Assembly (NCBI GenBank): GCA_965205485.1
Contig: OZ242180.1
Location: forward strand, 409,292 to 473,291
Reading direction: 5' to 3'
DNA length: 64,000 nt
Source: Candidatus Latescibacterota bacterium
GTDB lineage: Bacteria; Latescibacterota; UBA2968; GCA-2709665
A model generated the notes under the pieces. That model saw only the letters and a list, made by a program, of their open reading frames with translations, was not told the DNA's origin and did not search any database. Position numbers and translations under genes: made by a program. Numbering within the stretch: position 1 is the first letter of the stretch; each line of letters opens with the position of its first letter. Of the stretch, positions 10,140 through 61,702 are shown one piece after another.

Positions 10140-10172
10140 TGACATTTTGAATCCAGTACTACCTGTTCCCTC

Positions 10173-11427: not shown

Positions 11428-11439
11428 TATGGAGACGGA

Positions 11440-15217: not shown

Positions 15218-15259
15218 ATCCCATCACAAGTTGCCGGTATTCCCCACAAAACTTCTGCC

Positions 15260-16261: not shown

Positions 16262-16311
16262 ACCCGGCGGCCTTTTTGCTGAACCAATTCACTGTCGCCC
16301 GAATCCAGTCT

Positions 16312-40600: not shown

Positions 40601-42465
40601 CTGGTATCGTCTACCGGCCAGGTGACCAGTTCGTCCACCGTTTCCAGCCGGACGTGTCCGGGTCCCCAGGCCTGCACGATGGCCGGCCCGCCGCCCTCCT
40701 CGTGATAACGTATGGACAGCGAATCCAGCTCTTCATTGATCTGGAAGACCGGATTCTTGGTGGTCAGGTTGATTGTGGGCGCGTCCTCGTTGTCCGCGTC
40801 CCCGGGCGCGGTCGGGGCTATTTCTTCGCCGTCAGCGCCCGCCAGGCCGGATCCCGTGGGGAACAGATTGCTGATCGTCGGAGCCTTCCAGTCGTACCGA
40901 ATGCCCGATAGGCTCATCTCGGACGCGTTGCCGAGGCTGTCCCAGACCTCGATCTTCAGGTCGTTTTGTACACCGCCAGGTTCGTCGTATCGCCAGAAAA
41001 TCCGCGGCTCGTATGCGGTAGTTGTTGCGCGATCGTAGTCTTTCTGGGTAGGTGGCAGACCCTCGTCAGTAGAGGTGGCCGGATCATCGGTACTACCTTG
41101 ACTGTACGTGCTGTCTCCATGGGTAATTATGACCGAATCGGGCACTTCACTCAAATCAATCCTTAGATTTTTTCCTGTATAAAACACCCTTCTTGCCTGC
41201 TCACCCGGCAATGGAATGTAGTTGCCGATGGTCCTCCCGAGAATCGCGATCAGAGGATCGTGCGATCCGGCCGCGATACTATCGGGATTGGGATAACTGA
41301 CCGTTATCGTCGGCGCGGTCGCGTCTCCGATAATCGGGACGTTTGTCGCGGTTGTCGCATCGGCTGCGACTGTCGGGAATGCCGTATCGGCTGCGAGAAC
41401 GCCATCGGTCCCGTGGAGGACTTTCCAATCGGCAGCGGCGGGCGCCGTAGCCGTACCGCCCACGTTACCGGCTTCGTCCACGAGATAAGCGAAGAGTTCG
41501 AGCCGCTGATTGTCCGCAAACTGCCCCGCTTCAATTTTCGTCTCAGCGCTCGGATTCGGGCTGTACAGCCTGTCCCCGCGCAGCGTGACCTTCAACCGCG
41601 CATCGTCCCTGAAAGCGGCGGCTCTCGCCCCTTCCTCATTACCGACAAAGGGGCGATCCGATTCCTGCAGGGCCAGGATCGAGTCTGTGGGCACAAGGCC
41701 TACCTCGATCCTGTCCGCCCTCGCGCCCAGAATCGAGGCGGTATTCAGTTTCAGCACCGCTTTGAATACCTTGTCTGTGATGATCTGGATCTCTCGGACG
41801 AGTTCCGGGTTGCCGCCCGTCGTATCGGTCAGTACGGTGTTTAACCCGGCCAGGTCCAGATCGATACTCGTAAATACGCCTGCATGAATCGGGCGAGCGC
41901 CGTCGACGCCGAAGAGTACCCCGTCACCCACGCGTGTGGCGCCGAAACCGGCGGTTGCGGGCGTGATCTTCCGGTTCCTCATCAGGTTGTTCAAGGGTTC
42001 TTCGTTGTCCGGATCCACCACAACCTTCAAGGCGTGGTTGGTGGCGCTCTCCAGACCGGCGTTGGCGACAACACCAATCTTGACCTTGAAAGTATCGACG
42101 CCTGACGTCGCACCGTCGCCCTTTACGATCTGATCCGTGTCGGTTGTTCCATTATAATTGTAACTGTAATACACCTTGGTCGCAAAATCGCTGGCGACAG
42201 TGGTGATATCAACGCCTGTGGCGGTCTCACTGACGCTGGAGTCGATCACCGCCAGTTGGAAACCCTGATCGAGCCGGCCGTCGTAGCACAGGACCCGAAC
42301 TCTGATCGTATCACCGATCGCGGCCCATTCATTGGCCTTCGGCGTGTCGACGCGAATCAGGATACCCGGCGTGGCGGCCACCTCAACCTGCGCCGGGGCT
42401 GCACCAACCATTCCGAAAACCAGCAGAAGCGCTATACTTAGACCTGAAACTGTCCTTAACAGCAT
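37615..42465 (-). CDS. Giant secreted T9SS cargo protein (1616 aa): many Ig/Big-like beta-sandwich repeats, dockerin-like module, cohesin-like domain, C-terminal T9SS (Por secretion) sorting domain
   Basis: Signal peptide MLLRTVSGLSIALLLVFGMVGAAPAQ. C-terminal NYPNPFNPQTNIPYDL...VLLRIYNLLGQEIRTLV...GIYFYRISVAGKFQGTRRLMLLK is the canonical T9SS type-A CTD. DVNDDGVINFADFVAAAATFG is dockerin-type. TEMTLELAGDKVLVGETISLTVSMANAKSLNGYGLELMYDADKFEFVS...GEGALVTFTFQVL has a cohesin-like pattern. Confidence 0.85.
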   Translation of the reverse strand: MLLRTVSGLSIALLLVFGMVGAAPAQVEVAATPGILIRVDTPKANEWAAIGDTIRVRVLCYDGRLDQGFQLAVIDSSVSETATGVDITTVASDFATKVYYSYNYNGTTDTDQIVKGDGATSGVDTFKVKIGVVANAGLESATNHALKVVVDPDNEEPLNNLMRNRKITPATAGFGATRVGDGVLFGVDGARPIHAGVFTSIDLDLAGLNTVLTDTTGGNPELVREIQIITDKVFKAVLKLNTASILGARADRIEVGLVPTDSILALQESDRPFVGNEEGARAAAFRDDARLKVTLRGDRLYSPNPSAETKIEAGQFADNQRLELFAYLVDEAGNVGGTATAPAAADWKVLHGTDGVLAADTAFPTVAADATTATNVPIIGDATAPTITVSYPNPDSIAAGSHDPLIAILGRTIGNYIPLPGEQARRVFYTGKNLRIDLSEVPDSVIITHGDSTYSQGSTDDPATSTDEGLPPTQKDYDRATTTAYEPRIFWRYDEPGGVQNDLKIEVWDSLGNASEMSLSGIRYDWKAPTISNLFPTGSGLAGADGEEIAPTAPGDADNEDAPTINLTTKNPVFQINEELDSLSIRYHEEGGGPAIVQAWGPGHVRLETVDELVTWPVDDTSFVESQRYHLQILAFDLAGNVRMADGGTLTFTERFGNPDADMFKVVPDPDLEEKQVAGVDVAISLSVLDTTLTRIEKEQNSDAADVRAVTYHTPSALAAIVSGDQAEALEAASFSGAGVSPAPGFALPAELAALGMVAKAAILNGDGWHAGSRTVKFKSEKPLTGVILYAAEGDYDPATGAYTLRISGQAAKPINIEVAEFSKFTLTAIEDEISTENVAGAFSVHVVPTDSFANPSLRIDNNTDSKDYESIAFTFASSNAAVTVPSGQQMVTGIEGATYGAVASDAGGSATISVRTVAEDYETGTGDDATTGALAGSVTVSIVSGDGDGPDPGAPAAPANIVVQDYRGADGQGDQGGIVVVSFPNSAQHDAVTHYRIEREVEVTQTTDEDGNLVDLEAPRMEWMEWTRVSFSADAGDEMGDAGGDMQTVIVPAIDNVATNWGVTAVTGTGESEVTTAGKRVFTKESIRQTVQLLGMPEAELLTDEELNDRFNAPEDYVKALIGDRKNVIFAPANPDVSGLIGSANIPANIRTAGHASAGSFLSSARTATEEPVAAIDDIAPAAVTDASGEGAGGVVLRWTASASDHVVGSIPYNGYNVPILGVKGYTVMRGASADGLKQIATLAPGSNRFTDDHLPDGVSSLVYRIDAFDDNNVAMSDLITVTGISVRVSFVDANGDPVYLMALPAQGGSIEVDFEDFVTFGAAFGSRKGDKNYNPQADVNDDGVINFADFVAAAATFGRTAVLPAGSKLAVVPRRPGANADTEMTLELAGDKVLVGETISLTVSMANAKSLNGYGLELMYDADKFEFVSAVPADNDLLKSEGGETPLFRNWPEEGRVSVVNLITESGTVSGEGALVTFTFQVLREFEEVARFEIAQGVVFDGNQLQNPVVTLGALDVQSTPTEFALHQNYPNPFNPQTNIPYDLAEGGDVLLRIYNLLGQEIRTLVRERQAPGRYTVQWSGMDDRGVSVSSGIYFYRISVAGKFQGTRRLMLLK

Positions 42466-43002: not shown

Positions 43003-43037
43003 AAAAAAAAAGAGCCGGAAATTCCGGCTCCTTTTTG
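43003..43037 (-). terminator. Rho-independent terminator closing the minus-strand methyltransferase operon
   Basis: AAAAAAAAAGAGCCGG-aaatt-CCGGCTCCTTTTT, downstream of the CDS ending at 43065 on the minus strand. Confidence 0.6.
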
Positions 43038-43064
43038 TTCGGTCCAACCCGAGTTGGCTCTCTA

Positions 43065-43334
43065 TTATTTACCGCCCTGATCGTCGTAAGTCCGTTCAAG
43101 CTCCTCTGCAACGGACAGCAGGACCGTCTGCGGGTCCCCCGGACGTTCCCGCCGCTCACTCCACTGCCAGTGGGCCAGGTATGCGTCTGTTCCGGTCAGT
43201 CCCTCCACCATCGCTCGGCGGTCGATCGCCTCCTGAAATTCCGGAGGCATCTGCCGCGCAACCCGACGCTTGCCGTCGAAGACCCGCACCTGCGCGGGGA
43301 TGTCCTTCCAGTACAACACCTGGTATTCGGCCAC
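43065..43334 (-). CDS. Small conserved protein (89 aa), last gene of the methyltransferase operon. Possibly the Pfam 'virulence factor' family that often accompanies corrinoid-MT/MTHFR genes; this family assignment is from memory and not verified.
   Basis: MAEYQVLYWKDIPAQVRVFDG...AYLAHWQW. Positioned 3 nt downstream of the Hcy-MT gene. Confidence 0.45.
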   Translation of the reverse strand: MAEYQVLYWKDIPAQVRVFDGKRRVARQMPPEFQEAIDRRAMVEGLTGTDAYLAHWQWSERRERPGDPQTVLLSVAEELERTYDDQGGK

Positions 43335-43337
43335 CGG

Positions 43338-44348
43338 TCATCCTTTCCGTTGTCTCCCGTTCATCATCCCGTGGAAGGCCCGGATATGCGACGGCCCGGT
43401 CCCGCAACAGCCTCCGATGATGGCGGCGCCGGCGACGATCAACTCGGGGACGGCCCGTGCCATGTCCTCGGCGGTCTGGGAATAAGTCGTCCGTCCTGTC
43501 TCTCGCTCCAGTTTCGGGAGCCCCGCGTTGGGATAGGCCATCAGCCTGATCCCCTGGACTCCCCGCGACACCATTGCGTCTCTGAACTGCCGGATTCCGT
43601 TGATCGCGTAAGCCATCCCCGTATGTTCCACCCGCCGGGTCTCCGCTCCGCAATTCATCCCGACGATCCCTACGTGCTCCAGCAGATTGTCACCGTCCGA
43701 AAACTCGCCGGAACCCAGGAAATCCAGGAGATCGCCCGGCGAATGCCCCCAGTCCGTCCGGTAGATCACCTCGCCTGTTTTCCGGTCCTTCGTGTACTTG
43801 CACGTGAGATTGATCGCGACGGGCAATCCGGTCTTCCGGGCCACGTCAGCCGCAATGGCGGCCTCTTTTGCGGAAAACATGGTCTCGATGCAGATCAGAT
43901 CCACCCCGGCCTGCGCGAGCGCATGGATGACCTGCTCGTGCGCATCCCTTACCTTCACGTCCGCGATGCCGAAGTCGATATCCCCCGCGTCCGACTCGAT
44001 AGCCCCGGGAGACGGTCCGACGGATCCCGCGATATAGACTGCCCTGTCGCTTTTTTCGACCGCCGTTTTCGCGTGTTCCACGGCCAGCCTGGCAATCTTT
44101 CCGGCATCGTTCGCGGCTTTCCCGGCCATTTCCAGGTGAAGCGGCGAAGCGACGAAGGTGTTGGTGCCGATGACGTCGGTTCCCGCTTCAATATAGGCGG
44201 CATGAATATCGACCACCGCAGCCGGGTGCAATTCATTCGCGAGCGCACTGTTCGTCAGTTCGATGCGCCCCTTGAACAACTCCGAACCGAATCCCCCGTC
44301 GTAAACCATAGGCCGGGCGTCTTCCATCCGATCGAGAAATTCCTTCAT
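43338..44348 (-). CDS. Homocysteine S-methyltransferase-domain protein (stand-alone MetH-type Hcy-binding domain)
   Basis: MVYDGGFGSEL..., ...IGTNTF..., C-terminal ...AAIIGGCCGTGPSHIRAF (the MetH GGCCGTTPEHI Zn/Hcy motif). Start at the internal ATG with a GGGGAGAAG RBS. 336 aa. Confidence 0.75.
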   Translation of the reverse strand: MKEFLDRMEDARPMVYDGGFGSELFKGRIELTNSALANELHPAAVVDIHAAYIEAGTDVIGTNTFVASPLHLEMAGKAANDAGKIARLAVEHAKTAVEKSDRAVYIAGSVGPSPGAIESDAGDIDFGIADVKVRDAHEQVIHALAQAGVDLICIETMFSAKEAAIAADVARKTGLPVAINLTCKYTKDRKTGEVIYRTDWGHSPGDLLDFLGSGEFSDGDNLLEHVGIVGMNCGAETRRVEHTGMAYAINGIRQFRDAMVSRGVQGIRLMAYPNAGLPKLERETGRTTYSQTAEDMARAVPELIVAGAAIIGGCCGTGPSHIRAFHGMMNGRQRKG

Positions 44349-44374
44349 CTTCTCCCCTGTTCCCCCCTTGAGCG

Positions 44375-45421
44375 TTAACGGTAAGCGTCCAGCGCACCCT
44401 TCCGATACGCACGCAAAAATGCCTTGCACATGCGGTCCCTGCCCAGAAGCATGTCTTCCGCTATCCGGTACGGTTCCGTGTCCCGGTCCATGGTGAAAAC
44501 GCGCTGCGGGCTGCTGGTTACCGGGTCGACAAGCCCGCTGTCCGCCCCGGCCTCGACGGCCAGAATGGTGAACACGTCGTTGATCAGGCGCCGGCACGGC
44601 AGCCCGAATGAAACGTTGCTGAACCCGCCGGTGACGTGAATCCCGGGGCCGAATCTCGCGCGAAGCCTGCGAATCGCCTCGAAGCAGTGGTTGCCGAAAC
44701 CGCCGTCCACCGATATCGGAAAGACCAGGGCATCCACGAAAACATCCTCGATCCCGATCCCCCTCGACAACGCCGCGTCCACCATCCGGGACGCGTTTTC
44801 GACCCGCTCCTCCGCGTCCTGGGGCATACCGCTCTCGCCGGCGGCCGTCACGACAACCCTGGCGTTGAACCTCAAGGCCAGGTCCAGCGCCTCCAGGCGC
44901 TCCAGCGATGCCGAGTTCAGCAGCGGCCGTCCAGCCCCGCCGTTGCAGGCCCCGAGTCCTTCTTCAATGGTCTCCACATTGGAGGAGTCAACGGATATCG
45001 GAACGGGGCTTACCTCCTGAACGGCGCCCACCAGCCATCGCATGGCCTTCTTCTGTTCGTCCAGTCGCAGTGAGACCTCGTCTACGTTCAGGTCCAGGTA
45101 GTCCGCCCCCGCTTCCACCTGGCGCTGAATCATCCGGTGCAGGTACGCCAGCCCGTCGTCCGCCTGTGGCGCAAGGCCGGACATCGCCGCCTGCACCGCG
45201 ATCTTGACGTACTTGACGCGCCCTTCTTCGTAGTCCTGCGTCCGCTTGAAATCGTCGGGAATGGTCAGGAAGCGCCGCCTCTTGCGGGTGTCGTAATAGC
45301 GGACCGCTTCCACCCCATCGGGGTTCTTCACGACGAGTCGTCCCTTTCTCAGGACAATCCGTGTCGTGTGGATGTTCTCACCGATGACGATGAACTCGCC
45401 GTCCCGACCCTCCAGTTTCAT
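44375..45421 (-). CDS. Pterin-binding (DHPS-like) methyltransferase: methyl-H4folate:corrinoid methyltransferase (MetH pterin domain / AcsE / MtrH-like)
   Basis: VIGENIH, VPISVDSSN, NGGAGRPLLNSASL, VVTAAGE, GGFSNVSFGLP all align with conserved blocks of the MetH pterin-binding domain. 348 aa. Confidence 0.75.
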   Translation of the reverse strand: MKLEGRDGEFIVIGENIHTTRIVLRKGRLVVKNPDGVEAVRYYDTRKRRRFLTIPDDFKRTQDYEEGRVKYVKIAVQAAMSGLAPQADDGLAYLHRMIQRQVEAGADYLDLNVDEVSLRLDEQKKAMRWLVGAVQEVSPVPISVDSSNVETIEEGLGACNGGAGRPLLNSASLERLEALDLALRFNARVVVTAAGESGMPQDAEERVENASRMVDAALSRGIGIEDVFVDALVFPISVDGGFGNHCFEAIRRLRARFGPGIHVTGGFSNVSFGLPCRRLINDVFTILAVEAGADSGLVDPVTSSPQRVFTMDRDTEPYRIAEDMLLGRDRMCKAFLRAYRKGALDAYR

Positions 45422-45431
45422 CGTATACCCC

Positions 45432-47033
45432 TCATTCTCTGCGTGCGTGGTGGTCCCGCTCCAGAAACGCGTTCGCCCAGGCGCTCGTGCCTTTGAGAGC
45501 GCCGTCCCTGAAGACCGCCGGCCCGTCCAGCATCGTCTCCTCCTCGCCGTACGCCTTGAGCCGCTCGTAGGCCAGCGACCAGATGCATTTTTTCTCCCCC
45601 ACTTCGCACCGGCCCCCTCGGGTTCCGCCGCAGGGACCGTTTCGCTGATTCTTGACGCACTGAGACTCGGGACACAGGAACGCGATATCCGGCAGCGAAC
45701 AATCGCCGCAGTCCCGGCAATCGAAGCACGGAATCTTCACCGCCTGCTCGGCGCCGTGCAAAACCCTGCGCACCCTGCTTCCGGCGCGGTCGACGGCCTC
45801 GAAGAACCTTCTGCCGATGCGAAAGGCCGGACGATCCTTCTCGAAAACCTGTTCGTGCACGAAGCGGTTTATCTTGTAGGCCGTGGATACGCGGCTTCTG
45901 GCGGCCCTCAACAACTCGGGTTGTTTCGAATGACGATACGCGCGGTTGACCTCGTCCGAACTCAGCCCCGTTTCCCTGTCTGGTTCGAAGAAGAAGAACT
46001 CTTCCGGCTGCTGGAAGCAAATCCCTGAAACGAAGTCTTTCCAGTCCGCGTCTCCGTAACCCCCGCAGATGTCCAGAATCCGCGCATAGTCCTCGAACTT
46101 CAGGTGCCCGCCAAGGTACACCCCGCGGTACCCCAACCCCCGGGCGATTGCGCACTGCTTCGCGGCGAACTCCAGAAAGAAAGCCTTGCCCTTGTCGCGG
46201 GAACGGGAATGCTTCCGCGTGAGTTCAAGCAACTCGTCGGTTACGATCACGCCGGGGATATTTCCTCCATGGAAGAACCTGGCCGAGGCGGGGCTCAGCA
46301 CGTACACGTTTGCAATCGCCGGCGTGCGAAGGCCGCAACGAGCCATGTACTTCAGCAGTTCGTCCTGCTTGCGCGAGTCGTACCCGATCTGGTTGATGAT
46401 GAACCCCGCGCCGTTCCGGATCTTTTTTTTAAGCTTGAAGTACTGCGGCATCACCTCGCGTTCGTACCGCTTGTGGTTGTTTGCCACCGCACCCAGGAAG
46501 AAACGTGTGGGCTTCAGGACCTGATCGCCTCTGACGCCTTCGAGCCGCATGCCTGAATTCATCTCCGAGAGCATCTTCAGGAGGCCGACCGAATCCGTAT
46601 CGAACACGGCGCCCGCCTGCCCGTGATATCCGGTTGCGGGGTAGTCGCCTGAGAGCGCGAGTACGTTTTCGAATCCTTCGCTTGCCAGCTCCCAGCCCCG
46701 GCTGAGCAGCGCATTCCGGTTCCAGTCCTTGCACGACAGGTGAATGATGACTTCCTTGCCCCGGCCCAGCAGGTCCATCCCCATCGCGTCCGGGCTGTTT
46801 GTGGCGTTCCCGCCGGGATTGTCCGTGATGCTCAGGGCGTGTACGCCGGGGTGGTCGGCCAGCGCCCGCGCGAGATTCAGAACCTGGCGTCCGCGACGCT
46901 CGGTGATCACCCCCCGGGAATTGACCAGTTCCACGCAGACGACGAACTCGTCCGTTTCCTCGAGCAGATGGCGCAGGGAGCGTTTCTTCCCGTCGTCGGG
47001 GGCTGGATCTGATTTTCCTAAAGTTGCCGCCAT
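45432..47033 (-). CDS. Methylenetetrahydrofolate reductase fused to a MetV-type Cys-rich C-terminal domain
   Basis: MetF barrel motifs (VVCVELVNSRG...; ALSITDNPGG; IIHLSCKDWNRN; LALSGD) and a C-terminal CFDCRDCGDCSL...CPESQC...GPCGG...C zinc-ribbon (MTHFR_C-like). 533 aa. Confidence 0.75.
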   Translation of the reverse strand: MAATLGKSDPAPDDGKKRSLRHLLEETDEFVVCVELVNSRGVITERRGRQVLNLARALADHPGVHALSITDNPGGNATNSPDAMGMDLLGRGKEVIIHLSCKDWNRNALLSRGWELASEGFENVLALSGDYPATGYHGQAGAVFDTDSVGLLKMLSEMNSGMRLEGVRGDQVLKPTRFFLGAVANNHKRYEREVMPQYFKLKKKIRNGAGFIINQIGYDSRKQDELLKYMARCGLRTPAIANVYVLSPASARFFHGGNIPGVIVTDELLELTRKHSRSRDKGKAFFLEFAAKQCAIARGLGYRGVYLGGHLKFEDYARILDICGGYGDADWKDFVSGICFQQPEEFFFFEPDRETGLSSDEVNRAYRHSKQPELLRAARSRVSTAYKINRFVHEQVFEKDRPAFRIGRRFFEAVDRAGSRVRRVLHGAEQAVKIPCFDCRDCGDCSLPDIAFLCPESQCVKNQRNGPCGGTRGGRCEVGEKKCIWSLAYERLKAYGEEETMLDGPAVFRDGALKGTSAWANAFLERDHHARRE

Positions 47034-47207
47034 GCGAATTTACTCGTGTTTTTGCGGGGGACCTTGGCGCACGGTCCCTCAAAGGCGGGAAGAAGTGAGC
47101 CGGAAGAAGGTAGAGATAACCTGCCTTGAAAGGCTTCTTCTCATGCCGGAGTCAAGAAGGTATAACATACCCGGCGAAGATTTCTTCTCCCGTCTTGCGT
47201 CTTGCGT

Positions 47208-48830
47208 CTACCCGGCTTTTAGAGAAGGCATCGGCTTGAACTGGCAGCCTTCCACGAACACCTCGAAGAAGTCCGGCGTCGTTTCGAGTTCGACATGCTC
47301 GATTTCCTTCACGAGCGCCTCGACGGTCGCCCTTTTCTCACGCGAAAGCAGGACCTCACGGGCGCCCTGGACAGCCGCATTTCCCGTCTTCACCACGCGT
47401 TCCTCGTCGACCGGCGCCAGGAATCCGATCTCGATCGCGTTCCGCACGTCCACGTAATTCGCGAATCCCCCGGCCAGGTATAGTGTGTCGATATCTTCCG
47501 GCCCAACCCCGAGGTGTCGCATCAGGATGAACTGTCCACAGAAATTCGCGGCCTTGGCCTGGGCCAGGTTGCTGGCGTCTTCGCGGGACAGCGTGATCCC
47601 GTAATCCGGGACAACCGGGATCTCGAAGGACCGGTCGGCAAACATCCCTTTGGGCGCCATGAGTTCGTGCCGCCGTAACTCCGCCAGCAGATCGATCAAC
47701 CCGGACCCGCACATTCCCTCCGGCTCGACGTTTCCAATGGTCCTGTACTGGAACCCGCCGTCTTGCAGACGGATCGACTCGATGGCGCCCTCGTGGCCGG
47801 GCATCCCGTACCGGACCAGCCCGCCCTCGAACGCGGGCCCGGCCGGACACGAGGCAGTGAGCAGTCCGTTGGCGCCTCGCACCACCACCTCGGTATTGGT
47901 CCCCACGTCCACCAGCATCACGACGCCATCCTGAGACATCAGGTCCGTCGCCAGGAGGTCTGCCGCCGTATCCGCCCCCACGTGGCTGGCGATCAGGGGC
48001 ATCCCGTAGACCTTTGCCCGCGGATTGGCGCGCAGCCCCAGTCGCCTGGAACCCTCCAGCAGGGAAGTCGTCTCCCGCACGCCCTTGAGAAATGCGTGCT
48101 CCACGCGGGACTTGTACGGTCTCTGGCCGATGCTCTGCACGTCCAGCTTGAAGAAGATGTCCCGCATCGTGGCGTTTCCCGCCACGACGATCTCGTAGAT
48201 TTCCTGCCGGACAAACCCGAATCTTCTTCCCAGATCGAGGATTTCGTGGTTGATCGCGTTGACGACCGCTTTCTGCAGTTCACCCTGAAACTCCCCGTCG
48301 TAGGAGATGCGATTCATCACGTCGCTGCCGCCGAAACGCTGCGGGTTCTCGAACGAACTCACGTGGACACTCTTGCCCGTGGCCAGATCCACCAGGTCCA
48401 TGACCACCGTTGTCGTGCCCAGATCGATCGCGATTCCGTAAAGGTGGCCGCGATACCTGTCGACGGCGACGCCGTCATAATAAACAACGTCCCCCAGGCG
48501 CGTGACCAGGGGGTCCGGATCCAGCGATTTTTCCAGGGAATGTGAAAGAATCCTGGGTTTGCGCCTCAACGGCGAGAACTCGATATCGGCTTCGTCGTTT
48601 TCAACCACCGCCTGACAGGCGAGGCGGTAATTCTCCCGCAGGAACGACTCCACGTCGTTCCGCGGCCGCAATGCGTCCATCCCGCACCCGATTTCAACCA
48701 CGCACTCGTGACAGTGTCCGGTGCGTCCGCAGGAAGTGGGCACCTGGACCGCCAGTTCGTCCGCATAGTCGAATATCGTCTTCCCGGCTGCCAGCGCCCG
48801 CCTCTTCCCGTCGTGAGATATGGTACCCAT
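47208..48830 (-). CDS. RACo-like reductive activator of corrinoid proteins ([2Fe-2S] ferredoxin N-domain plus ASKHA ATPase, DUF4445-like)
   Basis: N-terminal MGTISHDGKRRALAAGKTIFDYA...SCGRTGHCHEC (plant-type 2Fe-2S C-x4-C-x2-C), followed by ASKHA-type phosphate-binding loops (IAIDLGTTT; VDVGTNTE). Start at an internal Met; ~541 aa. Confidence 0.7.
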   Translation of the reverse strand: MGTISHDGKRRALAAGKTIFDYADELAVQVPTSCGRTGHCHECVVEIGCGMDALRPRNDVESFLRENYRLACQAVVENDEADIEFSPLRRKPRILSHSLEKSLDPDPLVTRLGDVVYYDGVAVDRYRGHLYGIAIDLGTTTVVMDLVDLATGKSVHVSSFENPQRFGGSDVMNRISYDGEFQGELQKAVVNAINHEILDLGRRFGFVRQEIYEIVVAGNATMRDIFFKLDVQSIGQRPYKSRVEHAFLKGVRETTSLLEGSRRLGLRANPRAKVYGMPLIASHVGADTAADLLATDLMSQDGVVMLVDVGTNTEVVVRGANGLLTASCPAGPAFEGGLVRYGMPGHEGAIESIRLQDGGFQYRTIGNVEPEGMCGSGLIDLLAELRRHELMAPKGMFADRSFEIPVVPDYGITLSREDASNLAQAKAANFCGQFILMRHLGVGPEDIDTLYLAGGFANYVDVRNAIEIGFLAPVDEERVVKTGNAAVQGAREVLLSREKRATVEALVKEIEHVELETTPDFFEVFVEGCQFKPMPSLKAG

Positions 48831-48835
48831 GCGTA

Positions 48836-49111
48836 CTATTCGTCGCCCCCGACGAATGCGCCCAGTTTCTCCTCCGTTTCCCAGGCGCCGCGGTAGTCCA
48901 GCTTGTCGTCTCCACCGCACATCAGCAGCGTTCCGCCCGGACGCGGCCTCCGCTGATTTCTGCAGCCGAACCTGGCGGTACACTCGTCGAAACGGTTCTT
49001 GTACGGGCACCGTACGGTTGAGAGTTCATCGGCATGGGCGATCATGCCGGCAAACAGTTCCGTGATCCTGTCCAGCCGCTTCTGATATTCCTCTTTTTCG
49101 ATCTTATGCAC
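48836..49111 (-). CDS. Small Cys-containing hypothetical protein (~70-92 aa) between the corrinoid protein and RACo
   Basis: ORF tightly packed between stops and starts (stop 6 nt before the RACo start). CPYKNRFDEC...C...C spacing suggests a small metal-binding module. Start ambiguous: GTG at 49111 or ATG at 49045. Confidence 0.35.
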   Translation of the reverse strand: MHKIEKEEYQKRLDRITELFAGMIAHADELSTVRCPYKNRFDECTARFGCRNQRRPRPGGTLLMCGGDDKLDYRGAWETEEKLGAFVGGDE

Positions 49112-49119
49112 GGTCGGGC

Positions 49120-49890
49120 TCAGGGGTTCAGGTTGGTCTCTACCTTCATCTCTTCGAGCAGGTCTTTGGCCAGGGCCACGCACGCCATCGCGTCTTTTCC
49201 GTACCCGTCCGCGCCCATATCGTCGGCGAATTCCTGCGTGACGGGCGCGCCACCCACCATGATCTTGACGTCTTCACGCAAATCCGCATCGATGAACGCC
49301 TCGATCGTCTTGCCCATATTCGGCATGGTTGTCGTCAGCAGCGCCGACATCCCAAGCAGCGGAGCACCGTGTTCCTCCACGGCATCCATGAATTCGTCCT
49401 CCGACGTGTCCACCCCCAGATCGTGAACGACAAACCCCGCGCCACGAAGCATCATGATGCACAGGTTCTTTCCAATGTCGTGCAGGTCGCCCTTTACAGT
49501 TCCCATGATGACCGTTCCGATCGGCTCGATGCCCGACGCGGAGAGAATGGGTTCGATATAGGCCATGCCGGCCTTCATCGCCCGGGCGCAGGCCAGCACT
49601 TCCGGAACGAAGATGAAGTTCTCCCGGAACTTGATCCCGACAATGCCCATTCCCGCGATCAACCCGTCGTCCATCACCTCCAGCGCCCCGGTTCCTGCAT
49701 CCAGTGCGGCTTTGGTCAACGCGTCCACTTCGTGATGGTCGCCGTCGATCAGGGCCGCGGCAATGGCCTGCATATCGGGAGTGACTCCGGCAAACGTGGC
49801 GATCGCCCGCTCCCGTTCTTCTTCCCGCTCGAGGAACTCCTCGATTTCGTCGCGGATGAATTCGTTTCCAATATCGGTAATTTCCGCCAT
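49120..49890 (-). CDS. Cobalamin-binding corrinoid protein (MtaC/MtbC/MetH-B12-domain-like)
   Basis: B12-binding helical cap then a Rossmann-like domain with the DxHxxG motif (KGDLHDIGKN) and ...MSALLTTTM.... 256 aa. Confidence 0.8.
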   Translation of the reverse strand: MAEITDIGNEFIRDEIEEFLEREEERERAIATFAGVTPDMQAIAAALIDGDHHEVDALTKAALDAGTGALEVMDDGLIAGMGIVGIKFRENFIFVPEVLACARAMKAGMAYIEPILSASGIEPIGTVIMGTVKGDLHDIGKNLCIMMLRGAGFVVHDLGVDTSEDEFMDAVEEHGAPLLGMSALLTTTMPNMGKTIEAFIDADLREDVKIMVGGAPVTQEFADDMGADGYGKDAMACVALAKDLLEEMKVETNLNP

Positions 49891-49908
49891 TATTCACCTG
49901 CCCCCTTA

Positions 49909-50120
49909 GAAGCTGTCTTAAAATTCCCAGCAGTCTTCGCACGGCTGCAAAAGCGCCGGTCGGCGTTGGTCAAACCCGCCCAAGAGTGGCGAGGGGCGCG
50001 CAGCCACGATACATTGGATATGGGCGAGTTTTCCCGTCGGCGCTGCACGCCCTTCGCGCCTCATAACCGCCGCTTTTTCGCTCGCGCTCGGGAACTCACC
50101 GGTAATTTTAAGACAGCTTC
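49909..50120. mobile_element. MITE-like element, family 1, copy 2, 212 bp, flanked by a TTA/TTA 3-bp duplication
   Basis: GAAGCTGTCTTAAAATTCCC...GGTAATTTTAAGACAGCTTC. Both ends are homologous to 11265..11427 but the internal segment differs. Its terminal TIR provides the last three codons and stop (K-L-S-TAA) of the UroD-family MT gene. Confidence 0.75.
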
Positions 50121-51166
50121 TTATCCGCCGGCGTCTCCCGGTGCCAGTCCCGGACCGCACCTGGAATCTCCTTCAGGTTTTCGATTGACGTCTGCAGCGG
50201 GATGGCGCACTCCGGACCCACGAGATGCACGCCTGCGTCCAGGTTCCTGAAAACCTCCTGCCTCACGGCTTCAGGCCCTTTTGAAAACAGCGTTTCCGGA
50301 TTGTTGATGTTGCCCACCAGCGAGATCCGCTCCTTAACCGCCGCCATGGACTCTCCCGGTTCGTTCTTCGAGTCGTAATGGAACGCGGACATCCCGGTCT
50401 GCGCGATGTACTCCATACGATCGACGGTCCGCCCGCAGATGTGCAGAATCAGCGGAATGGGGATCCTCTCCACGAACTCGATATGCAGGTCACGCAGATA
50501 CCGCTTGTAGTATTCCCCGCTCACGAGGTCGCCCGTCGCGTGATCGGGCAGCGTGAGCGCATCAGCGCCCGCCTCGATCTGCGCCACCCCGAAGTCCACC
50601 GTCACTTCCTTCATCCTGTCCAGACATGCCTTTGTCTTGTCCGGGTCGTCCAGCGACATGAGCAGAAAGGGCTCCACGCCGAAGCAGTGGTATCCCAGCG
50701 ACCATGGGCCCATTGTCTTGCCGATGACGGCCACGGCGTCTCCGTATTCCTTTTTCAGAATCCGGATCGCGTCCAGTACGCACTTCGTATCCTGGTGCGT
50801 GAGCAGGTCCGGCGGAATCTGAATGTCGTCCACGTCTTCCCAGATGGGCTCGCGCATCCTCACGGTGGGCCAGTTGTCTTTCTGCTCCCACTGGATCTTG
50901 CAGCCCATTGCGGACGACTCCTGGATAATTGTGAACACCGGCATGATCGAATCGAACCCCAACTCCGTATGCCCGGTGGCGGCAAGACGGGCCATCAGTT
51001 CCGGATCGCGGTTCGCATCCGGAAATGGCGCGTCCACGAGATCCATCAACTCCACGGTCGCCACCGACGTTGGATTGCACACGGGCGTCCGGTCCACCGG
51101 CTCCCGGTTCAGCGCCGCCAGAACACGCTCGCGGCCGGTCATTGGACCCACTGTGCGAGTCGCCAT
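50108..51166 (-). CDS. Uroporphyrinogen-decarboxylase-family methyltransferase (MtaA/MtbA/CmuA-N-like; methyl donor unknown)
   Basis: MTGRERVLAALNREPVDRTPV... is the classic MtaA/UroD N-terminus, with a TIM barrel and a Zn-ligand region (H...C...C). Start at an ATG with a CAGGAGAC RBS. 352 aa. Confidence 0.75.
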   Translation of the reverse strand: MATRTVGPMTGRERVLAALNREPVDRTPVCNPTSVATVELMDLVDAPFPDANRDPELMARLAATGHTELGFDSIMPVFTIIQESSAMGCKIQWEQKDNWPTVRMREPIWEDVDDIQIPPDLLTHQDTKCVLDAIRILKKEYGDAVAVIGKTMGPWSLGYHCFGVEPFLLMSLDDPDKTKACLDRMKEVTVDFGVAQIEAGADALTLPDHATGDLVSGEYYKRYLRDLHIEFVERIPIPLILHICGRTVDRMEYIAQTGMSAFHYDSKNEPGESMAAVKERISLVGNINNPETLFSKGPEAVRQEVFRNLDAGVHLVGPECAIPLQTSIENLKEIPGAVRDWHRETPADKKLS

Positions 51167-51212
51167 GTTCCAAGTCTCCTGTCTGTAACCTCGTTTACGC
51201 GGCCCGCCGGCG

Positions 51213-51842
51213 CTACCGCTGCTGGCTGGGCGCAGCCAGGACGCCGCGGGCGCCCGACGTCTCCTGTTCGCGAACCGCCGCCCGGACGTTTGGGGCCCGG
51301 ACCAGAAGCAGTCCCACAACAGCGTCGTGGTCGTATCCGCACGAAAACAAGACCGTATCCGGGCTTAGGGACTGCATTTCACCGAGCTTGGCCAGCCCGC
51401 CCGCGATTGCCGAAATTCTCCGCGCGGCGTCCCTTCCCTCCCCCTCAGCCTCGACGCGGTACTCGCCGCTGCCCGCACGGGACACCCTGATGTTCAATCC
51501 GGACTTCCTGTCGACGATCGTCAGCGGACGGGCTTTCAGTTCGCCGCCGGAAGCCAGCTTGCACGCTTCGAGAAAGACCCGCCGGCAGGCCAGTTCGTGC
51601 GCTTCTCCGCACGGAAACCGCAGCAGCCCGTCGGGTGTCTGCACCATTCCGCCCAGCACCGCCATCCCATTGGTGACGAATGCGATCCGCTGGTCGGCCC
51701 CTGCTCTTCCGCTGTACGTATGTACGCGATACACGGGAGCCCCATCGTGATCCTGGCTGTAGAGGCCAATCGTGATATCACGAAAATGCGGATCCATGGG
51801 CACCAGTTCGATGCGCGTTCCGATATCGATGGTTTGGCCCAT
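51213..51842 (-). CDS. Hypothetical protein (~210 aa), first gene of the corrinoid-MT operon
   Basis: Start at the second ATG, 8 nt after a GGAGG. No motif assigned. Confidence 0.5.
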   Translation of the reverse strand: MGQTIDIGTRIELVPMDPHFRDITIGLYSQDHDGAPVYRVHTYSGRAGADQRIAFVTNGMAVLGGMVQTPDGLLRFPCGEAHELACRRVFLEACKLASGGELKARPLTIVDRKSGLNIRVSRAGSGEYRVEAEGEGRDAARRISAIAGGLAKLGEMQSLSPDTVLFSCGYDHDAVVGLLLVRAPNVRAAVREQETSGARGVLAAPSQQR

Positions 51843-52027
51843 TGTGCCATCCTCCGGCAAGTTTTCCCTTGACAGCAGGGAACCCCGTCTGTTCTTTTAC
51901 TGTTATGATGATGGTCAGACCAATTCTGGATTTAAGGGTAACCTAAATAGAAGCCATTGTAAAGCGAAATCTTTCTGGCGCGACGAACTGGCGGCTTCGC
52001 GCATCAAGAAGAAAGGTTTAAGATATC

Positions 52028-52795
52028 GTGACTCGAAAACCGAAGGCCCCGGCACTCGAGCAGATGACGCCCGTCAGACGCACGTCGCTGAGCGACGAAA
52101 TCGTCGGCCAGATCATCGACCTGATCTCTCGGGACGTGCTGAAACCGGGCGATCAGCTGCCGCCGGAACGAAGCCTGTGCAAACAGTTCGGGGTCGGCCG
52201 GACCTCCCTCAGGGAAGCCCTCCGTACACTCTCCGTGATGGGCATCCTGGAACCCCGGGTGGGTGAGGGTACGTTCGTCAGCGACAATACTGGCCGATAC
52301 CTGGAGAAATCCCTGAGCTGGGGCCTGCTGCTGGATCCGAAGGAAGTCACGGACCTCGTGGAAACGCGGCTAATGCTGGAATCCCGTAATGCATTCCTTG
52401 CCGCCGGGCGCGCCACGGAAGCCGACCTCCTTGAATTCGAGCGGACGACCCGTGGAATCGAGGCATCTCTGAACCGGCCCGGCGAATTCCTGGAATTCGA
52501 CGTACAGTTCCATCTGGCCATTGCCCGGGCAACCCAGAATTCTATCCTCTGCAACCTCCTCGTGATGATTCGCAACTACCTTCAGGAATGGATCCGGGCC
52601 AGCCTGGAGGAACCCGCGACCCATACGGTGGAGGTGCGGGCCCGGATGTCGGTGGAAGAACACGTAAAAATCGTGCGGGCCATCCGGAAACGCGACGCCG
52701 AAGCCGCACAGCGGGCCATGGAGGAGCACATTCTGTCCAGCAGCGTGGACCTGCGGGCGCGTATCGACGGTGATTCCGAAAACCGATCGGGGTGA
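52028..52795 (+). CDS. GntR-family (FadR/FCD subfamily) transcriptional regulator, divergent from the corrinoid-MT operon
   Basis: N-terminal wHTH (PGDQLPPERSLCKQFGVGRTSLREALRTLSVMGILEPRVGEGTFV) plus an all-helical C-terminal effector domain (FCD-like). Confidence 0.75.
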   Translation: MTRKPKAPALEQMTPVRRTSLSDEIVGQIIDLISRDVLKPGDQLPPERSLCKQFGVGRTSLREALRTLSVMGILEPRVGEGTFVSDNTGRYLEKSLSWGLLLDPKEVTDLVETRLMLESRNAFLAAGRATEADLLEFERTTRGIEASLNRPGEFLEFDVQFHLAIARATQNSILCNLLVMIRNYLQEWIRASLEEPATHTVEVRARMSVEEHVKIVRAIRKRDAEAAQRAMEEHILSSSVDLRARIDGDSENRSG

Positions 52796-52821: not shown

Positions 52822-52983
52822 GTGTCCCGTCCTGGAAATATGTCACCATTCTTCGGCCGATTCATCCCGTCTTGCTTCGTTGCCTTCGCTCGCTGACCTT
52901 GCCCAGGTCACCTCGCTCAGGCGCCTTGCCAGCCGGGCGACTCGGCCACCGAATTTCGGCAACCTATTTCCAGGACAGAACAC
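52822..52983. mobile_element. MITE-like element, family 2, copy 2 (reverse orientation), 162 bp
   Basis: The reverse complement reads GTGTTCTGTCCTGGAAATAGGTTGCCGAAATTCGGTGGCCGAGTCGCCCGGCTGGCAAGGCG...GGGATGAATCGGCCG...TATTTCCAGGACGGGACAC. The terminal TIR supplies the last codons and stop (…SWK-TAG) of the HAD hydrolase gene. Confidence 0.75.
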
Positions 52984-53821
52984 TCGCCACGGTCTTCGAG
53001 AACCCTTCATGCTCCAGCGGTTCGCACGTCCGCACGCCCGCCTCGGCGGCTGAATCCCTGGTCAGACGGTCCGCGTTTCCCATCAGCACGCCGATGCCCG
53101 CCGCCTTCAGCATCGGCAGGTCGTTATCCCCGTCTCCAATCGCAAGCGACTGGGCAAGGGCGACGCCGCACGCATCGCAGATCTCCCGCAATGCCACCGC
53201 CTTGTTCACGTCCGGATGCATGATCTCGATCCGGTCGTCGCCCGTGCGGGCGAGATAGAACCGCCGCCCGAACGCCGCACGCATCCTCTCGAACAAGTCT
53301 TCCCGTCGACCGGGACCGGGCAGCAAGATCATCTTCGGCGGGGGAACCAGATCCCGCGCCATGGACAACAGGTCCGGCTCCAGCACGATATTCACGCCCG
53401 TCATCCGCACAAGATTTCGGATCCACGCGGTCTCTTCGTCCGTAATATAGGCCTCGCTGAGGCCGGTCTGATCGGTCTCGCACCGGCAATAGATGAAGTT
53501 CACACCACTATTGCCGACAAAATCAACAAGATCGGGAAAGCCATCCGCCGGCAATCGCTGTTCGTGCAGCAACGACCGCTCGTTATCCGCGCCGGTTCCC
53601 AGCACCATCGCGCCGTTGTAGCTTCCGACACTCAAAACCGGCCGGACATCCGGGGGAAACGGCGCCAGGCTCTTCCCCACGTTTCGACCGCTGATCGACG
53701 CCATCGCGATTCCGGCTCGCGCCAGCCGTCGAAGCGCCTCGACAGTCGTGCTTGACATCCGGCCCCTGTCGTCGAGCAGCGTACCATCCAGATCGAACGC
53801 CACGAGCCGCACGTCACCCAT
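52964..53821 (-). CDS. HAD-IIB (Cof-type) phosphatase
   Basis: VAFDLDGTLL (motif I), ...ASISGR (II), ...AIGDGDNDLPM (IV). 285 aa from the internal Met. Confidence 0.75.
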   Translation of the reverse strand: MGDVRLVAFDLDGTLLDDRGRMSSTTVEALRRLARAGIAMASISGRNVGKSLAPFPPDVRPVLSVGSYNGAMVLGTGADNERSLLHEQRLPADGFPDLVDFVGNSGVNFIYCRCETDQTGLSEAYITDEETAWIRNLVRMTGVNIVLEPDLLSMARDLVPPPKMILLPGPGRREDLFERMRAAFGRRFYLARTGDDRIEIMHPDVNKAVALREICDACGVALAQSLAIGDGDNDLPMLKAAGIGVLMGNADRLTRDSAAEAGVRTCEPLEHEGFSKTVASVLSWK

Positions 53822-53855
53822 TCTGCCGACCTCCCGACGACATACCGATATCCCT

Positions 53856-54872
53856 TCAGAAATCCGTGACGACCCTGGCGGGCCTGCCGGTCTTAATCGA
53901 TTCCACAACCGCGAAACACGCCGCCATCGTCCGGGCGCCTTCCTTTACGTCGATCATCGGCGTTTCGCCCGTATCCAGGCAGTGCAGGAAATGCGACAAT
54001 TCCTCCGCGCAGGCGTGTACCTCTCCCAGCACAGGAAACGGGATCTCCGCGAATTCCTCGATGTCACCGAACTCTTTGAGATAGAGCCGGTTTTCCTCTA
54101 CCGTGCCCTCGGTGCCATAGAGATTGAACGTCATGGAATAGGGCCGCGGCGCACCCACGGACACCAGGCACTTTCCCACCGCGCCGTTCCTGAATTTCAG
54201 CGAAGCGATCACCGTATCGTGCCAGTCGACGTCGTGAAGGACCTTCGTAACACCATAGGCCGACACTTCCTCCATTTCCCCCACGATCCAGCGCATCAGG
54301 TCCAGCGGGTGGCACGCCCCGCCGATCACCGCGAATTGACCCTCGTCAGGGTGCCGCCACCACTGGTGACCAGGACCGGTGAGAAACGGCTCCAGCGAAT
54401 GGACGTAGTCCGACTCACAGAAACAGGCTTCGCCAAGCTTGCCCGAGTCGAACAGGTCCTTCACGGCCCGGTGCAATTGCCTGAAACGCGCGCCGTGGCC
54501 CACCATCAGCTGCCGGCCCGAACCTTCGACCGCGGCAACCATGCGGCGGCAGTCCTGCAACGTGGTCGCCATCGGCTTTTCACAGAACACATGCTTACCG
54601 GCCTCCAGCGCGGAAACGGCCTCGTCGGCGTGCAGCCGGTTGGGCGTGCAGAGGTACACCACGTCAACCGCCTCGTCCGCGACAATCTCTCCGAAGTCCG
54701 TGGTCACCTGCTCGGCCCCGTATTCGGCCTTCATCTCCTCCAATCGACCCGCGCCGCGCGACGATCCGCAGATCGAACGCAGTTTCGCCCGCGGATCGGA
54801 CGCAATCGCCTTGATGTGCTCCAGGCCGATATACCCCGTACCCACTACCGCGATTCGATATTCAGCTGCCAC
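53856..54872 (-). CDS. Gfo/Idh/MocA-family oxidoreductase
   Basis: YRIAVVGTGYIGLEH..., VYLCTPNRLH, EKPMA. Confidence 0.75.
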   Translation of the reverse strand: MAAEYRIAVVGTGYIGLEHIKAIASDPRAKLRSICGSSRGAGRLEEMKAEYGAEQVTTDFGEIVADEAVDVVYLCTPNRLHADEAVSALEAGKHVFCEKPMATTLQDCRRMVAAVEGSGRQLMVGHGARFRQLHRAVKDLFDSGKLGEACFCESDYVHSLEPFLTGPGHQWWRHPDEGQFAVIGGACHPLDLMRWIVGEMEEVSAYGVTKVLHDVDWHDTVIASLKFRNGAVGKCLVSVGAPRPYSMTFNLYGTEGTVEENRLYLKEFGDIEEFAEIPFPVLGEVHACAEELSHFLHCLDTGETPMIDVKEGARTMAACFAVVESIKTGRPARVVTDF

Positions 54873-54898
54873 GACAACGGTCCTTTCGGATCATGCGA

Positions 54899-55942: not shown

Positions 55943-55988
55943 TTTTCCTCCTTGGAAGCTGTTTCAAAACCCCCATCGTATCACGGGT

Positions 55989-57263: not shown

Positions 57264-57306
57264 GTCATCTCCTCAGGATCATGTACGACAATATCGGTAC
57301 GCCGGC

Positions 57307-59637: not shown

Positions 59638-59667
59638 GCACCCCTGGCGTTGTCGGCCCGCGACGAC

Positions 59668-60675: not shown

Positions 60676-60740
60676 ATTCAGACACCTCGACGTTAGTGAA
60701 TAATGGATGATTTACGTTCTGCGTTTCGTGACCCGATCTC

Positions 60741-61457: not shown

Positions 61458-61702
61458 CCATTCCTCTCCGGGCGAAAAAAAGCCCGGCAACGTTGCCGGA
61501 GTGTAAGTTCCTGTCACCGGGAAGGGGTCGGAACATACCACATTCATGGAGGGCGATCAAGGCATTTCTGGCCTAACAGCCCGTTGAAAAAGTCCATCCG
61601 GGCTGCGGCCGGCCTTTGCGGTCGAAATACTGCGTTGCGCTCCCTCACCGAATCGACGGATGGGACTCGGTCGCGCGCCTTGTCTTCAACCACAATGGCA
61701 AG

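Follow-up and report, generated by a model that had tools for sequence, protein, structure and literature searches.

What is the role of an operon that encodes the homocysteine-, pterin- and B12-binding modules of methionine synthase as separate proteins and sets beside them a further zinc methyltransferase and a small protein with no recognizable fold? The question arises in a stretch of 64,000 nucleotides (nt) from a Candidatus Latescibacterota bacterium (contig OZ242180.1, positions 409,292 to 473,291; GenBank assembly GCA_965205485.1), hereafter the window, whose G+C content is ~61%. An open reading frame (ORF) map and a search of Pfam and NCBIfam profiles place nine co-directional ORFs, g1 to g9, on its minus strand at 43065–51842. 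An earlier description made from the letters alone, the sequence-only reading, had proposed that a UroD-type enzyme in this operon loads a corrinoid protein from a non-folate donor and that the methyl group then passes to tetrahydrofolate (H4folate) and/or to homocysteine (Hcy). Comparative genomics favors that scheme. We consider it reasonably probable, though well short of certain, that the operon is a modular corrinoid methyl-transfer system built on the chassis of the split MetH and MtgBCDE systems, in which g1 and g2 demethylate a small methylated compound. The grouping of these genes is more than chance, because the gene set and its order recur in dozens of genomes from several phyla.

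A constant core and interchangeable acceptor modules

The operon opens with g1 (51213–51842), a protein of 209 amino acids (aa) with no Pfam or NCBIfam match, followed by g2 (50108–51166), a zinc methyltransferase of the MtaA/CmuA family with the UroD fold (Pfam URO-D, 230 bits). The corrinoid (B12) carrier g3 (49120–49890) combines a cap domain with a Rossmann domain (B12-binding_2, 74 bits; B12-binding, 94.5 bits), and its DxHxxG motif reads GDLHDIG. Next come g4 (48836–49111), which has 91 aa, four conserved Cys and no Pfam match, and g5 (47208–48830), which has all three domains of a RACo/RamA-type activase in Pfam: the [2Fe-2S] domain Fer2, the RACo middle domain (Raco_middle, 141 bits) and the ASKHA C-terminal domain (RACo_C_ter, 215 bits). 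The remaining genes encode a MetF-MetV fusion (g6, 45432–47033; MTHFR, 41 bits, and DUF5981, 85 bits, in a single chain), a pterin-binding methyltransferase (g7, 44375–45421; Pterin_bind, 82 bits), a stand-alone zinc S-methyltransferase of the homocysteine type that carries the motif GGCCGTGPSHI (g8, 43338–44348; S-methyl_trans, 183 bits) and a small PF13769 ('Virulence_fact') protein (g9, 43065–43334; 76.7 bits). The nine genes are thus all present in the order that the sequence-only reading had given, and the profile searches bore out each of its domain calls.

In a scan of one genome per species, >565 loci encoded a relative of g2. The 80 best of these, with g2 protein identities of 82–97%, belong to six phyla: Latescibacterota, Poribacteria, Gemmatimonadota, Acidobacteriota (including 'Ca. 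Versatilivorator'), Verrucomicrobiota (Opitutales and 'Ca. Moanabacter') and Lentisphaeria. The closest are metagenome-assembled genomes (MAGs) labeled Latescibacterota or Gemmatimonadota, and the habitats include many sponges and some soil, groundwater and deep-sea sites. We mapped the window proteins by tblastn onto 84 related loci, 67 of which had enough flanking sequence for counting, and judged the presence or absence of each module within 10 kb. g1 and g2 are adjacent in all 67 assessable loci, and in 45 of them g3 and g5 are present as well. Among these 45 full-core loci, the pterin methyltransferase occurs in 35 (33 of which also have the MetF-MetV gene) and the Hcy methyltransferase in 23; both acceptors are found in 17, and in six the Hcy methyltransferase is the sole acceptor, with no folate branch. 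The conserved core is g1-g2-g3-g4-g5, and the acceptor modules are dispensable and interchangeable. The gene-neighborhood comparison that had been suggested along with the sequence-only reading therefore shows a constant core to which the pterin/MTHFR and Hcy branches are joined alone or together, and a constant donor side with interchangeable acceptors accounts for all of the module combinations that we observed.

These patterns suggest the following scheme. The ATP-dependent activase g5 would keep g3 in the Co(I) state by repairing oxidized Co(II), assisted by g4 and g9. g1 and g2 would form a lineage-specific substrate-side unit (MT1), with g2 moving the methyl group of the substrate onto Co(I)-g3. 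The resulting CH3-Co(III)-g3 could then be unloaded along two branches: g7 would produce methyl-H4folate, which g6 would oxidize to methylene-H4folate for one-carbon (C1) oxidation or assimilation, and g8 would convert homocysteine to methionine. The g7 reaction is probably reversible, in which case g7, g3, g8 and g5 could together serve as a split methionine synthase when no substrate is available. The direction of flow, the class of the substrate, the formation of methionine by g8 and the MT1 role of g1 and g2 are what we infer, the last because of the modular gene patterns, the analogy with Mtg clusters, in which the variable gene encodes the donor enzyme, and the repressor-type regulation described below.

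The flow could also run the other way. In that case g6 would make methyl-H4folate, g7 would load g3, and g2 would be an MtaA-like MT2 in a biosynthetic or detoxifying pathway; the acceptor would be a thiol, a selenol or sulfide, possibly presented by g1, and g8 would be a second branch. In favor of this direction, the MTHFR and the pterin methyltransferase are the commonest companions of the core (35 of 45 full-core loci). However, reverse flow leaves the six Hcy-only loci unexplained, which have neither a pterin methyltransferase nor an MTHFR within 10 kb. Because methionine is a poor donor, these loci would be left with no plausible source of methyl groups under reverse flow, and we regard reverse flow as unlikely.

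The module counts also bear on a housekeeping role. Here g7, g3 and g8 would constitute a split methionine synthase, reactivated by g5, g4 and g9 and fed by g6, and g1 and g2 would be auxiliary, for example in B12 handling or reactivation, as the DUF1638 protein is in Phaeobacter. Consistent with this role, every MetH module except the S-adenosylmethionine (AdoMet) domain is present as a separate gene, proven split systems have a RamA-like activase in place of that domain, and g1 is about the size of DUF1638, likewise an unexplained small partner. Nonetheless, 22 of the 45 full-core loci have no g8, and none lacks g1-g2; g2 is, moreover, a complete zinc methyltransferase and the most conserved protein of the set. 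g1 is not a homologue of DUF1638, and its assignment as a divergent member of that family was rejected (hhalign probability 0.1%). Repressor control would be atypical for an essential biosynthetic enzyme, and a short MetE-like protein is encoded elsewhere in the window (15260–16261, plus strand). We judge a housekeeping role to be improbable. Methionine synthesis is better seen as an optional output of the system than as its defining one, because no more than 23 of the 45 full-core loci have the Hcy module. The MetE-like protein itself has 333 aa and a single Meth_synt_2 domain (Pfam, 78.9 bits) and resembles the short 'core MetE' proteins, with a score of 157 bits against PRK04326, below the cut-off of 406; it may support methionine synthesis independently of g8 or accept corrinoid-bound methyl groups on its own.

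The proteins that would maintain the carrier are tied together by gene fusions. A search of plasmid records with g9 retrieved annotated clusters of the Mtg type in Azoarcus sp. KH32C and Sinorhizobium meliloti, and g3 is 45–51% identical to the corrinoid proteins of these clusters and of a similar one in Terrarubrum. g5 is more distant from the ASKHA activases of the proteobacterial clusters (28–32% identity) and scores 288 bits against NCBIfam AcsV, below the 800-bit cut-off. The motif of g4 is conserved (RCPYKNRxDxCTAxFGCRNQ...C), and in nine of 23 sampled related loci g4 is in frame with the N-terminus of RACo; the 'small Cys protein' of the sequence-only reading is therefore present and can be refined to a predicted accessory N-terminal module of the activase. 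Similarly, its 'small conserved protein' is the PF13769 protein g9, which is 42–49% identical to its counterpart in the proteobacterial clusters. In Azoarcus and Sinorhizobium, the neighbors of the PF13769 gene are those for the corrinoid protein, DUF1638 and MetV; Terrarubrum has PF13769 fused to the N-terminus of RACo, and Gemmatirosa has it in one chain with the corrinoid protein, at the C-terminal end. g9 would accordingly be an accessory of the corrinoid protein or its activase. It is these three fusions (in Gemmatirosa, in Terrarubrum and between g4 and RACo) that link g4 and PF13769 to the activation machinery.

On the acceptor side, g6 contains both the MetF catalytic domain and a MetV domain, the latter being DUF5981, a MetV-like Cys-rich 'MTHFR C-terminal' domain (PF12225), and is thus of the MetVF type. 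Its N-terminal part is 25–28% identical to the separate MetF of the Azoarcus and Sinorhizobium clusters and its C-terminal part 36–37% identical to their MetV-like proteins; we found no solved structural relative of g6. The nearest solved chain to g7 is 4o0q/4o1e/4o1f (130 bits), followed by AcsE/MeTr (102 bits) and MetH (77 bits), and g7 is 34–35% identical to the pterin methyltransferase of the same two clusters. The 4O1E and 4O1F structures contain bound (CH3-)H4F and were the template for the MTII protein CdmA (PMC13222342). Among solved chains, g8 comes closest to the Hcy domains of MetH (78 bits); BHMT (46 bits) and HMT (44 bits) score lower. The zinc ligands of g8, one Cys and a Cys-Cys pair, align with those of MetH 8g3h to give a Cys3 zinc site. 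The annotated Hcy methyltransferase, MetH or bmt proteins of the plasmid collection are only 27–34% identical to g8, and orthology with proteobacterial MtgE/bmt is unsupported beyond the family level.

The g1-g2 pair and the possible source of the methyl group

The most distinctive component of the operon is g1, the obligate partner of the UroD enzyme g2. The sequence-only reading had listed the gene correctly but passed over it as 'hypothetical'. As a protein it is a puzzle, with no recognizable fold. It contains an internal duplication (residues 34–83 and 125–174, 37% identity), and both repeats end in an invariant F-x-C-G-x-x-H (C78/H82 and C168/H172), so placed that the four residues are a possible Cys2His2 metal site. 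A conserved C-terminal tail, RGVLSAPSQQ, is predicted to be disordered. A large protein collection contains 1204 relatives of g1, and a search of 1.84 billion representatives gave 273 clusters, almost all of them stand-alone proteins of ~210 aa, and no domain fusions. The sole apparent g1-g2 fusion was discarded, as its Arg/Pro-rich junk linker looks like frameshift read-through.

The second protein puzzle is g2, for its unusual conservation across phyla. Its zinc ligands, His242-Cys244-Cys320, are invariant in 121 sequences. It scores above the cut-offs of TIGR01463 mtaA_cmuA (251.6 bits; cut-off 235.4) and PRK06252 (264.7 bits; cut-off 244) but below the equivalog cut-offs of MtaA (241.8 versus 400 bits) and MtbA (204.9 versus 600 bits), so that we rejected its assignment as an MtaA or MtbA equivalog, that is, a methylcobamide:coenzyme M methyltransferase. 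The only solved methyltransferase that it matches is MtaA; with that of Methanosarcina mazei (4ay7), it shares 32% identity over 328 residues, and the HxC and C zinc ligands are aligned. No O-demethylase or CdmB chain is among its matches in the PDB at E ≤ 0.001, and with His-Cys-Cys retained, membership in the UroD-type O-demethylase/CdmB lineage was rejected as well. By sequence, g2 appears to be of the MtaA-like lineage.

The lineage speaks to the donor in more than one way. MtsA and MtpA, which are of the MtaA-like lineage, demethylate dimethyl sulfide (DMS) and methylmercaptopropionate onto Co(I). Across the superfamily, His-Cys-Cys sites are associated with S- and Se-methyl chemistry and carboxylate-substituted sites with O-demethylation (Kountz & Balskus, PMC10418091). 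We read the chemical class of the donor, methyl-sulfur or methyl-selenium, from this zinc-site rule only. Under it, the donor would most likely be a methyl thioether or thiol, such as DMS, methanethiol or methylmercaptopropionate, and a methyl selenide or methyl halide would be less likely.

A methyl halide donor (CH3Cl, CH3Br or CH3I) would leave the flow in the forward direction and make the operon a disaggregated analogue of CmuA/CmuB/MetF2. In the cmu pathway, as in the window operon, a UroD-type methyltransferase and a corrinoid occur together with a pterin methyltransferase and with a dedicated MetF. g2 scores above the NCBIfam 'mtaA_cmuA' subfamily cut-off, and its extreme conservation would be in keeping with a very small substrate that does not vary. 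However, the operon contains neither folD nor purU, and FCD-type regulators, one of which is encoded divergently from it, usually sense carboxylates rather than gases. The corrinoid proteins of the MtgC type in roseobacters are close to CmuA (PMC12478193), but CmuA has been placed as an early-diverging UroD lineage (PMC13222342), and the plasmid collection that we searched for a direct comparison with g2 gave no CmuA, only matches of ≤28% identity, mostly hemE. On balance, a halide donor seems a long shot.

A more specific version of the scheme concerns methylated sulfur in aerobes, for which a cobalamin-dependent DMS methyltransferase route has been postulated since 1993; a 2019 paper and a December 2025 preprint still describe it as 'unidentified'. 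Speculatively, g1 and g2, together with g3-g5, might be this aerobic cobalamin-dependent route for DMS or methanethiol (or methylmercaptopropionate), with g1 as a new Cys2His2 metalloprotein subunit; we think this doubtful as it stands. If true, it would place the route in dominant sponge symbionts (Poribacteria, Latescibacterota and Acidobacteriota) and in soil Acidobacteriota, and the carbon of methylated sulfur compounds would enter folate-bound C1 units and, directly, methionine.

Several points weigh against donor-side demethylation of a methyl-sulfur compound. To our knowledge, all characterized MtaA and MtbA enzymes act on the acceptor side, from methyl-Co to a thiol, so g2 could be an MT2. 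The reverse flow considered above gains from this, since the MtaA/MtbA-lineage namesakes of g2 transfer a corrinoid-bound methyl group to a zinc-activated thiol and the His-Cys-Cys site of g2 suits thiolate activation. CmuA also has a His-Cys-Cys motif, which therefore does not exclude halides. The g2/g1 family appears to be known from genes alone. In 22 of the 67 assessable loci, 21 of them from Poribacteria, g1-g2 occurs without a corrinoid protein within 10 kb, and no sulfur, selenium or halide signal recurs consistently in gene neighborhoods across phyla. Finally, the low identity of g8 to annotated proteins means that its substrate is assigned at the family level only. Reverse flow, for its part, is at odds with the divergent GntR/FCD repressor and with the Mtg analogy, where MT1 on the donor side is the enzyme that varies. 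These two observations suggest catabolism, and we continue to favor demethylation by g1 and g2.

The substrate-handling g1-g2 part of the system is conserved in hundreds of species of sponge-symbiont and soil bacteria, in which the genes are currently annotated as 'MtaA/CmuA family methyltransferase', 'dihydropteroate synthase' and 'hypothetical protein'. If our reading is true, widespread and mostly uncultured phyla, including the main symbionts of high-microbial-abundance sponges, carry a B12-dependent demethylation that annotation has hidden. The estimated B12 requirement of these communities would then rise, and the proteins would be candidates for missing enzymes in the cycling of methyl-sulfur (or methyl-halide or methyl-selenium) compounds.

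Transcript boundaries, regulation and neighboring genes

The operon is closed by an intrinsic terminator, read directly from the minus strand at 43030–43003, 35 nt past the g9 stop codon: an 8-bp GC-rich stem, GAGCCGGAATTTCCGGCTC, followed by nine T. The palindrome was also scored on the plus strand. A terminator after the last gene had been expected from the sequence-only reading, as had tight packing of the genes with gaps of 3–30 nt. The second expectation fails for two spacers that are far longer: the intergenic gaps from g1 to g9 are 46, 217, 8, 5, 174, 10, 26 and 3 nt. The g2-g3 spacer (49891–50107, minus strand, 217 nt) folds somewhat better than shuffled sequence (z = -2.4), and the g5-g6 spacer (47034–47207, minus strand, 174 nt) does not (z = -1.1). 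Spacers in related loci range from 15 to ~340 nt. No riboswitch or other RNA family in Rfam was matched anywhere in the window, both long spacers included, and a promoter scan gave a signal no better than that of shuffled sequence.

A regulator with GntR (69 bits) and FCD (90.5 bits) domains is encoded divergently from the operon at 52028–52795 on the plus strand, as the sequence-only reading had stated. An operator-like palindrome, TGGTCTGACCA, lies between the two at 51912–51922, ~80 nt upstream of the g1 start codon; it was read directly and resembles what we take to be a FadR-type GntR operator. Of the 84 mapped loci, 42 have a divergent GntR homologue, and the palindrome TGGTC[A/T]GACCA is present in 19 of these 42 and in none of the 42 loci without the gene. 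It lies at -68 to -110, except in a single locus at -226, and the looser pattern TGGT-N3-ACCA has a background frequency of 0.02 per kb. The GntR/FCD protein may thus be a repressor that binds the palindrome and makes the operon inducible. We count repressor-type regulation as support for a catabolic role.

The genes around related loci are inconsistent across phyla and allow no substrate call. Latescibacterota loci share genes for HAD, two GFO_IDH_MocA, ceramidase-like, APC permease-Usp and AP_endonuc_2 proteins, and isolated loci carry a Cys/Met pyridoxal phosphate enzyme, an aminotransferase, cupins, a GH43 enzyme or a sulfatase. In the window, the corresponding block lies upstream of the regulator (52964–61547, minus strand) and encodes a HAD hydrolase, two GFO_IDH_MocA oxidoreductases, a 424-aa ceramidase-like protein, an APC permease with fused Usp domains, an AP_endonuc_2 TIM-barrel protein and a histidine phosphatase. 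The block is syntenic in MAGs labeled Latescibacterota or Gemmatimonadota. It looks like one for the metabolism of a sugar or cyclitol phosphate, and any functional link to the operon is at most putative.

Other observations concern individual groups of loci. Eight Poribacteria loci have a conserved gene for a 265-aa PhyH-family protein (Fe/2-oxoglutarate dioxygenase) between RACo and MTHFR, and several of them have an inserted methyltransferase/restriction-like module of 3–5 kb. The Poribacteria loci that have g1-g2 only lie beside mraW and division genes or beside Rieske/cytochrome b genes, with no corrinoid protein or activase within 10 kb. In one Gemmatimonadota-labeled MAG, an inserted GH43 glycoside hydrolase gene (13771–14787 of that locus) separates RACo from the Hcy methyltransferase and a sulfatase gene (16147–17610) lies after PF13769; the pterin methyltransferase and MTHFR genes are missing from the locus. 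Elsewhere in the window, two proteins of ~1616 aa (16174–21030, plus strand, and 37615–42465, minus strand) have repeat domains of a sort common in secreted or surface proteins: NHL, FG-GAP and ASPIC/UnbV repeats in one and, in the other, a cohesin domain and a Por_Secre_tail, which is a sorting signal of the type IX secretion system (T9SS) type.

Comparison with known corrinoid systems

Our literature search found no characterized system and no description of one with exactly this composition, in agreement with the sequence-only reading, nor any published description of the g1+g2 donor module, the fused MetF-MetV, the g4 module or the phyla involved. It nevertheless has features in common with systems that transfer methyl groups through UroD-type enzymes. 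The methanogen systems MtaA/MtbA, MtsA-MtsB and MtpA-MtpC share with the window operon the His-x-Cys...Cys ligands, an MtaC/MtbC-like corrinoid protein and a RamA-type activase. They pass the methyl group to coenzyme M, whereas the proposed acceptor in the window operon is H4folate or homocysteine, and the operon has g1 as an obligatory addition. We know of no coenzyme M synthesis in the bacteria that carry operons of this type. The CmuA/CmuB/MetF2 pathway, also of aerobes, uses a UroD-type enzyme to load a corrinoid, a pterin methyltransferase to form methyl-H4folate and a dedicated MetF. In CmuA, however, methyltransferase and corrinoid domains are fused, whereas they are separate proteins here, and the pathway is without the Hcy module, RACo, PF13769 and g1, all four of which are present in the window operon.

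Bacterial systems from anaerobes offer a second set of relatives. Type 1 mlp clusters have been proposed to act in methyl-sulfur or methyl-selenide metabolism and contain MtaA-like His-Cys-Cys enzymes, a corrinoid protein and a RACE activase (Kountz & Balskus, PMC10418091). They have two or three UroD paralogues (Mlp2 and Mlp3), are without an H4folate methyltransferase and occur in strict anaerobes; the window operon has one UroD gene, g1 and the pterin, MTHFR and Hcy modules, and with its single UroD gene and its pterin methyltransferase it was rejected as a member of this class. The O-demethylases of anaerobes, MtgABC and CdmBCA have the same architecture of MTI, corrinoid protein, H4folate-dependent MTII and RACE, but their UroD-type MTIs are without Cys zinc ligands and only distantly related to g2, and the systems have no Hcy module, PF13769 protein or g1. 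A related cluster on plasmid 1 of Gemmatirosa kalamazoonensis, a cultured soil member of the Gemmatimonadetes, was also observed (NZ_CP007129.1, 916611–940844, at ~8231–16290 of that segment), in the order UxuA-like protein, UroD-family protein, corrinoid-PF13769 fusion, RACo, a 403-aa ORF of no assigned family and Hcy methyltransferase. Its RACo is 45% identical to g5, its Hcy methyltransferase 34% identical to g8 and its UroD protein 21% identical to g2. That UroD protein has LYHND in place of the Cys zinc ligands, and the cluster could be a version of this chassis for O-demethylation, in a tractable organism.

The closest parallels are found among methionine synthases. Canonical MetH has Hcy, pterin and B12 modules homologous to g8, g7 and g3, but it is a single polypeptide with an AdoMet domain, whereas the window operon has three proteins and an additional putative donor-side methyltransferase, and no operon protein matches the AdoMet reactivation domain PF02965. 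The sequence-only reading was correct that the modules are separate and that a RACo-type activase is present, but such an arrangement is not new. In Phaeobacter, fitness genetics identified a three-part MetH together with a RamA-like DUF4445 protein and a DUF1638 protein, and in Desulfovibrio, MetH depends on a RamA-like protein (Price 2018, PMC5764234). In Ruegeria, the corrinoid protein MtgC and the pterin methyltransferase MtgD have two uses: the demethylation of glycine betaine, alongside MetF2 and the MttB-type MtgB, and the synthesis of methionine with the Hcy module MtgE (Mausz 2025, PMC12478193). Because a split MetH is already genetically established, the novelty of the window operon is narrower than that first description implied.

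The window operon shares with the split MetH and MtgBCDE systems a separate corrinoid protein, separate pterin and Hcy methyltransferases and a Fer2/ASKHA activase, along with a dedicated MetF, a MetV-like partner and a PF13769 protein. The window proteins are 25–51% identical to their counterparts in Azoarcus and Sinorhizobium, whose clusters run in the order corrinoid protein, DUF1638, PF13769, MTHFR C-terminal-domain protein, MTHFR, 'dihydropteroate synthase' and ASKHA protein, and the clusters adjoin glycine-betaine transporters or a gene of the trimethylamine-methyltransferase (MttB) family. The difference lies mainly in the donor module. MtgBCDE has a glycine-betaine methyltransferase of the MttB superfamily and needs a DUF1638 protein, and here g1 with the UroD-fold g2 would take their place: the operon has no MttB-superfamily ORF, nor do any of the 84 related loci, and there is no Pfam match to DUF1638 in the operon. 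The window operon also differs in its fused MetF-MetV and its four-Cys g4, in the grouping of all parts in one operon and in its hosts, which are Latescibacterota, Poribacteria, Acidobacteriota and others. As in MtgBCDE, one corrinoid protein would be common to a catabolic methyl donor and to methionine synthesis. If this is true, a shared catabolic and methionine-forming chassis extends from marine Proteobacteria to another class of donor enzyme and to other phyla. In kind, the system is a known one: a modular corrinoid methyltransferase that shares its carrier with a split methionine synthase.

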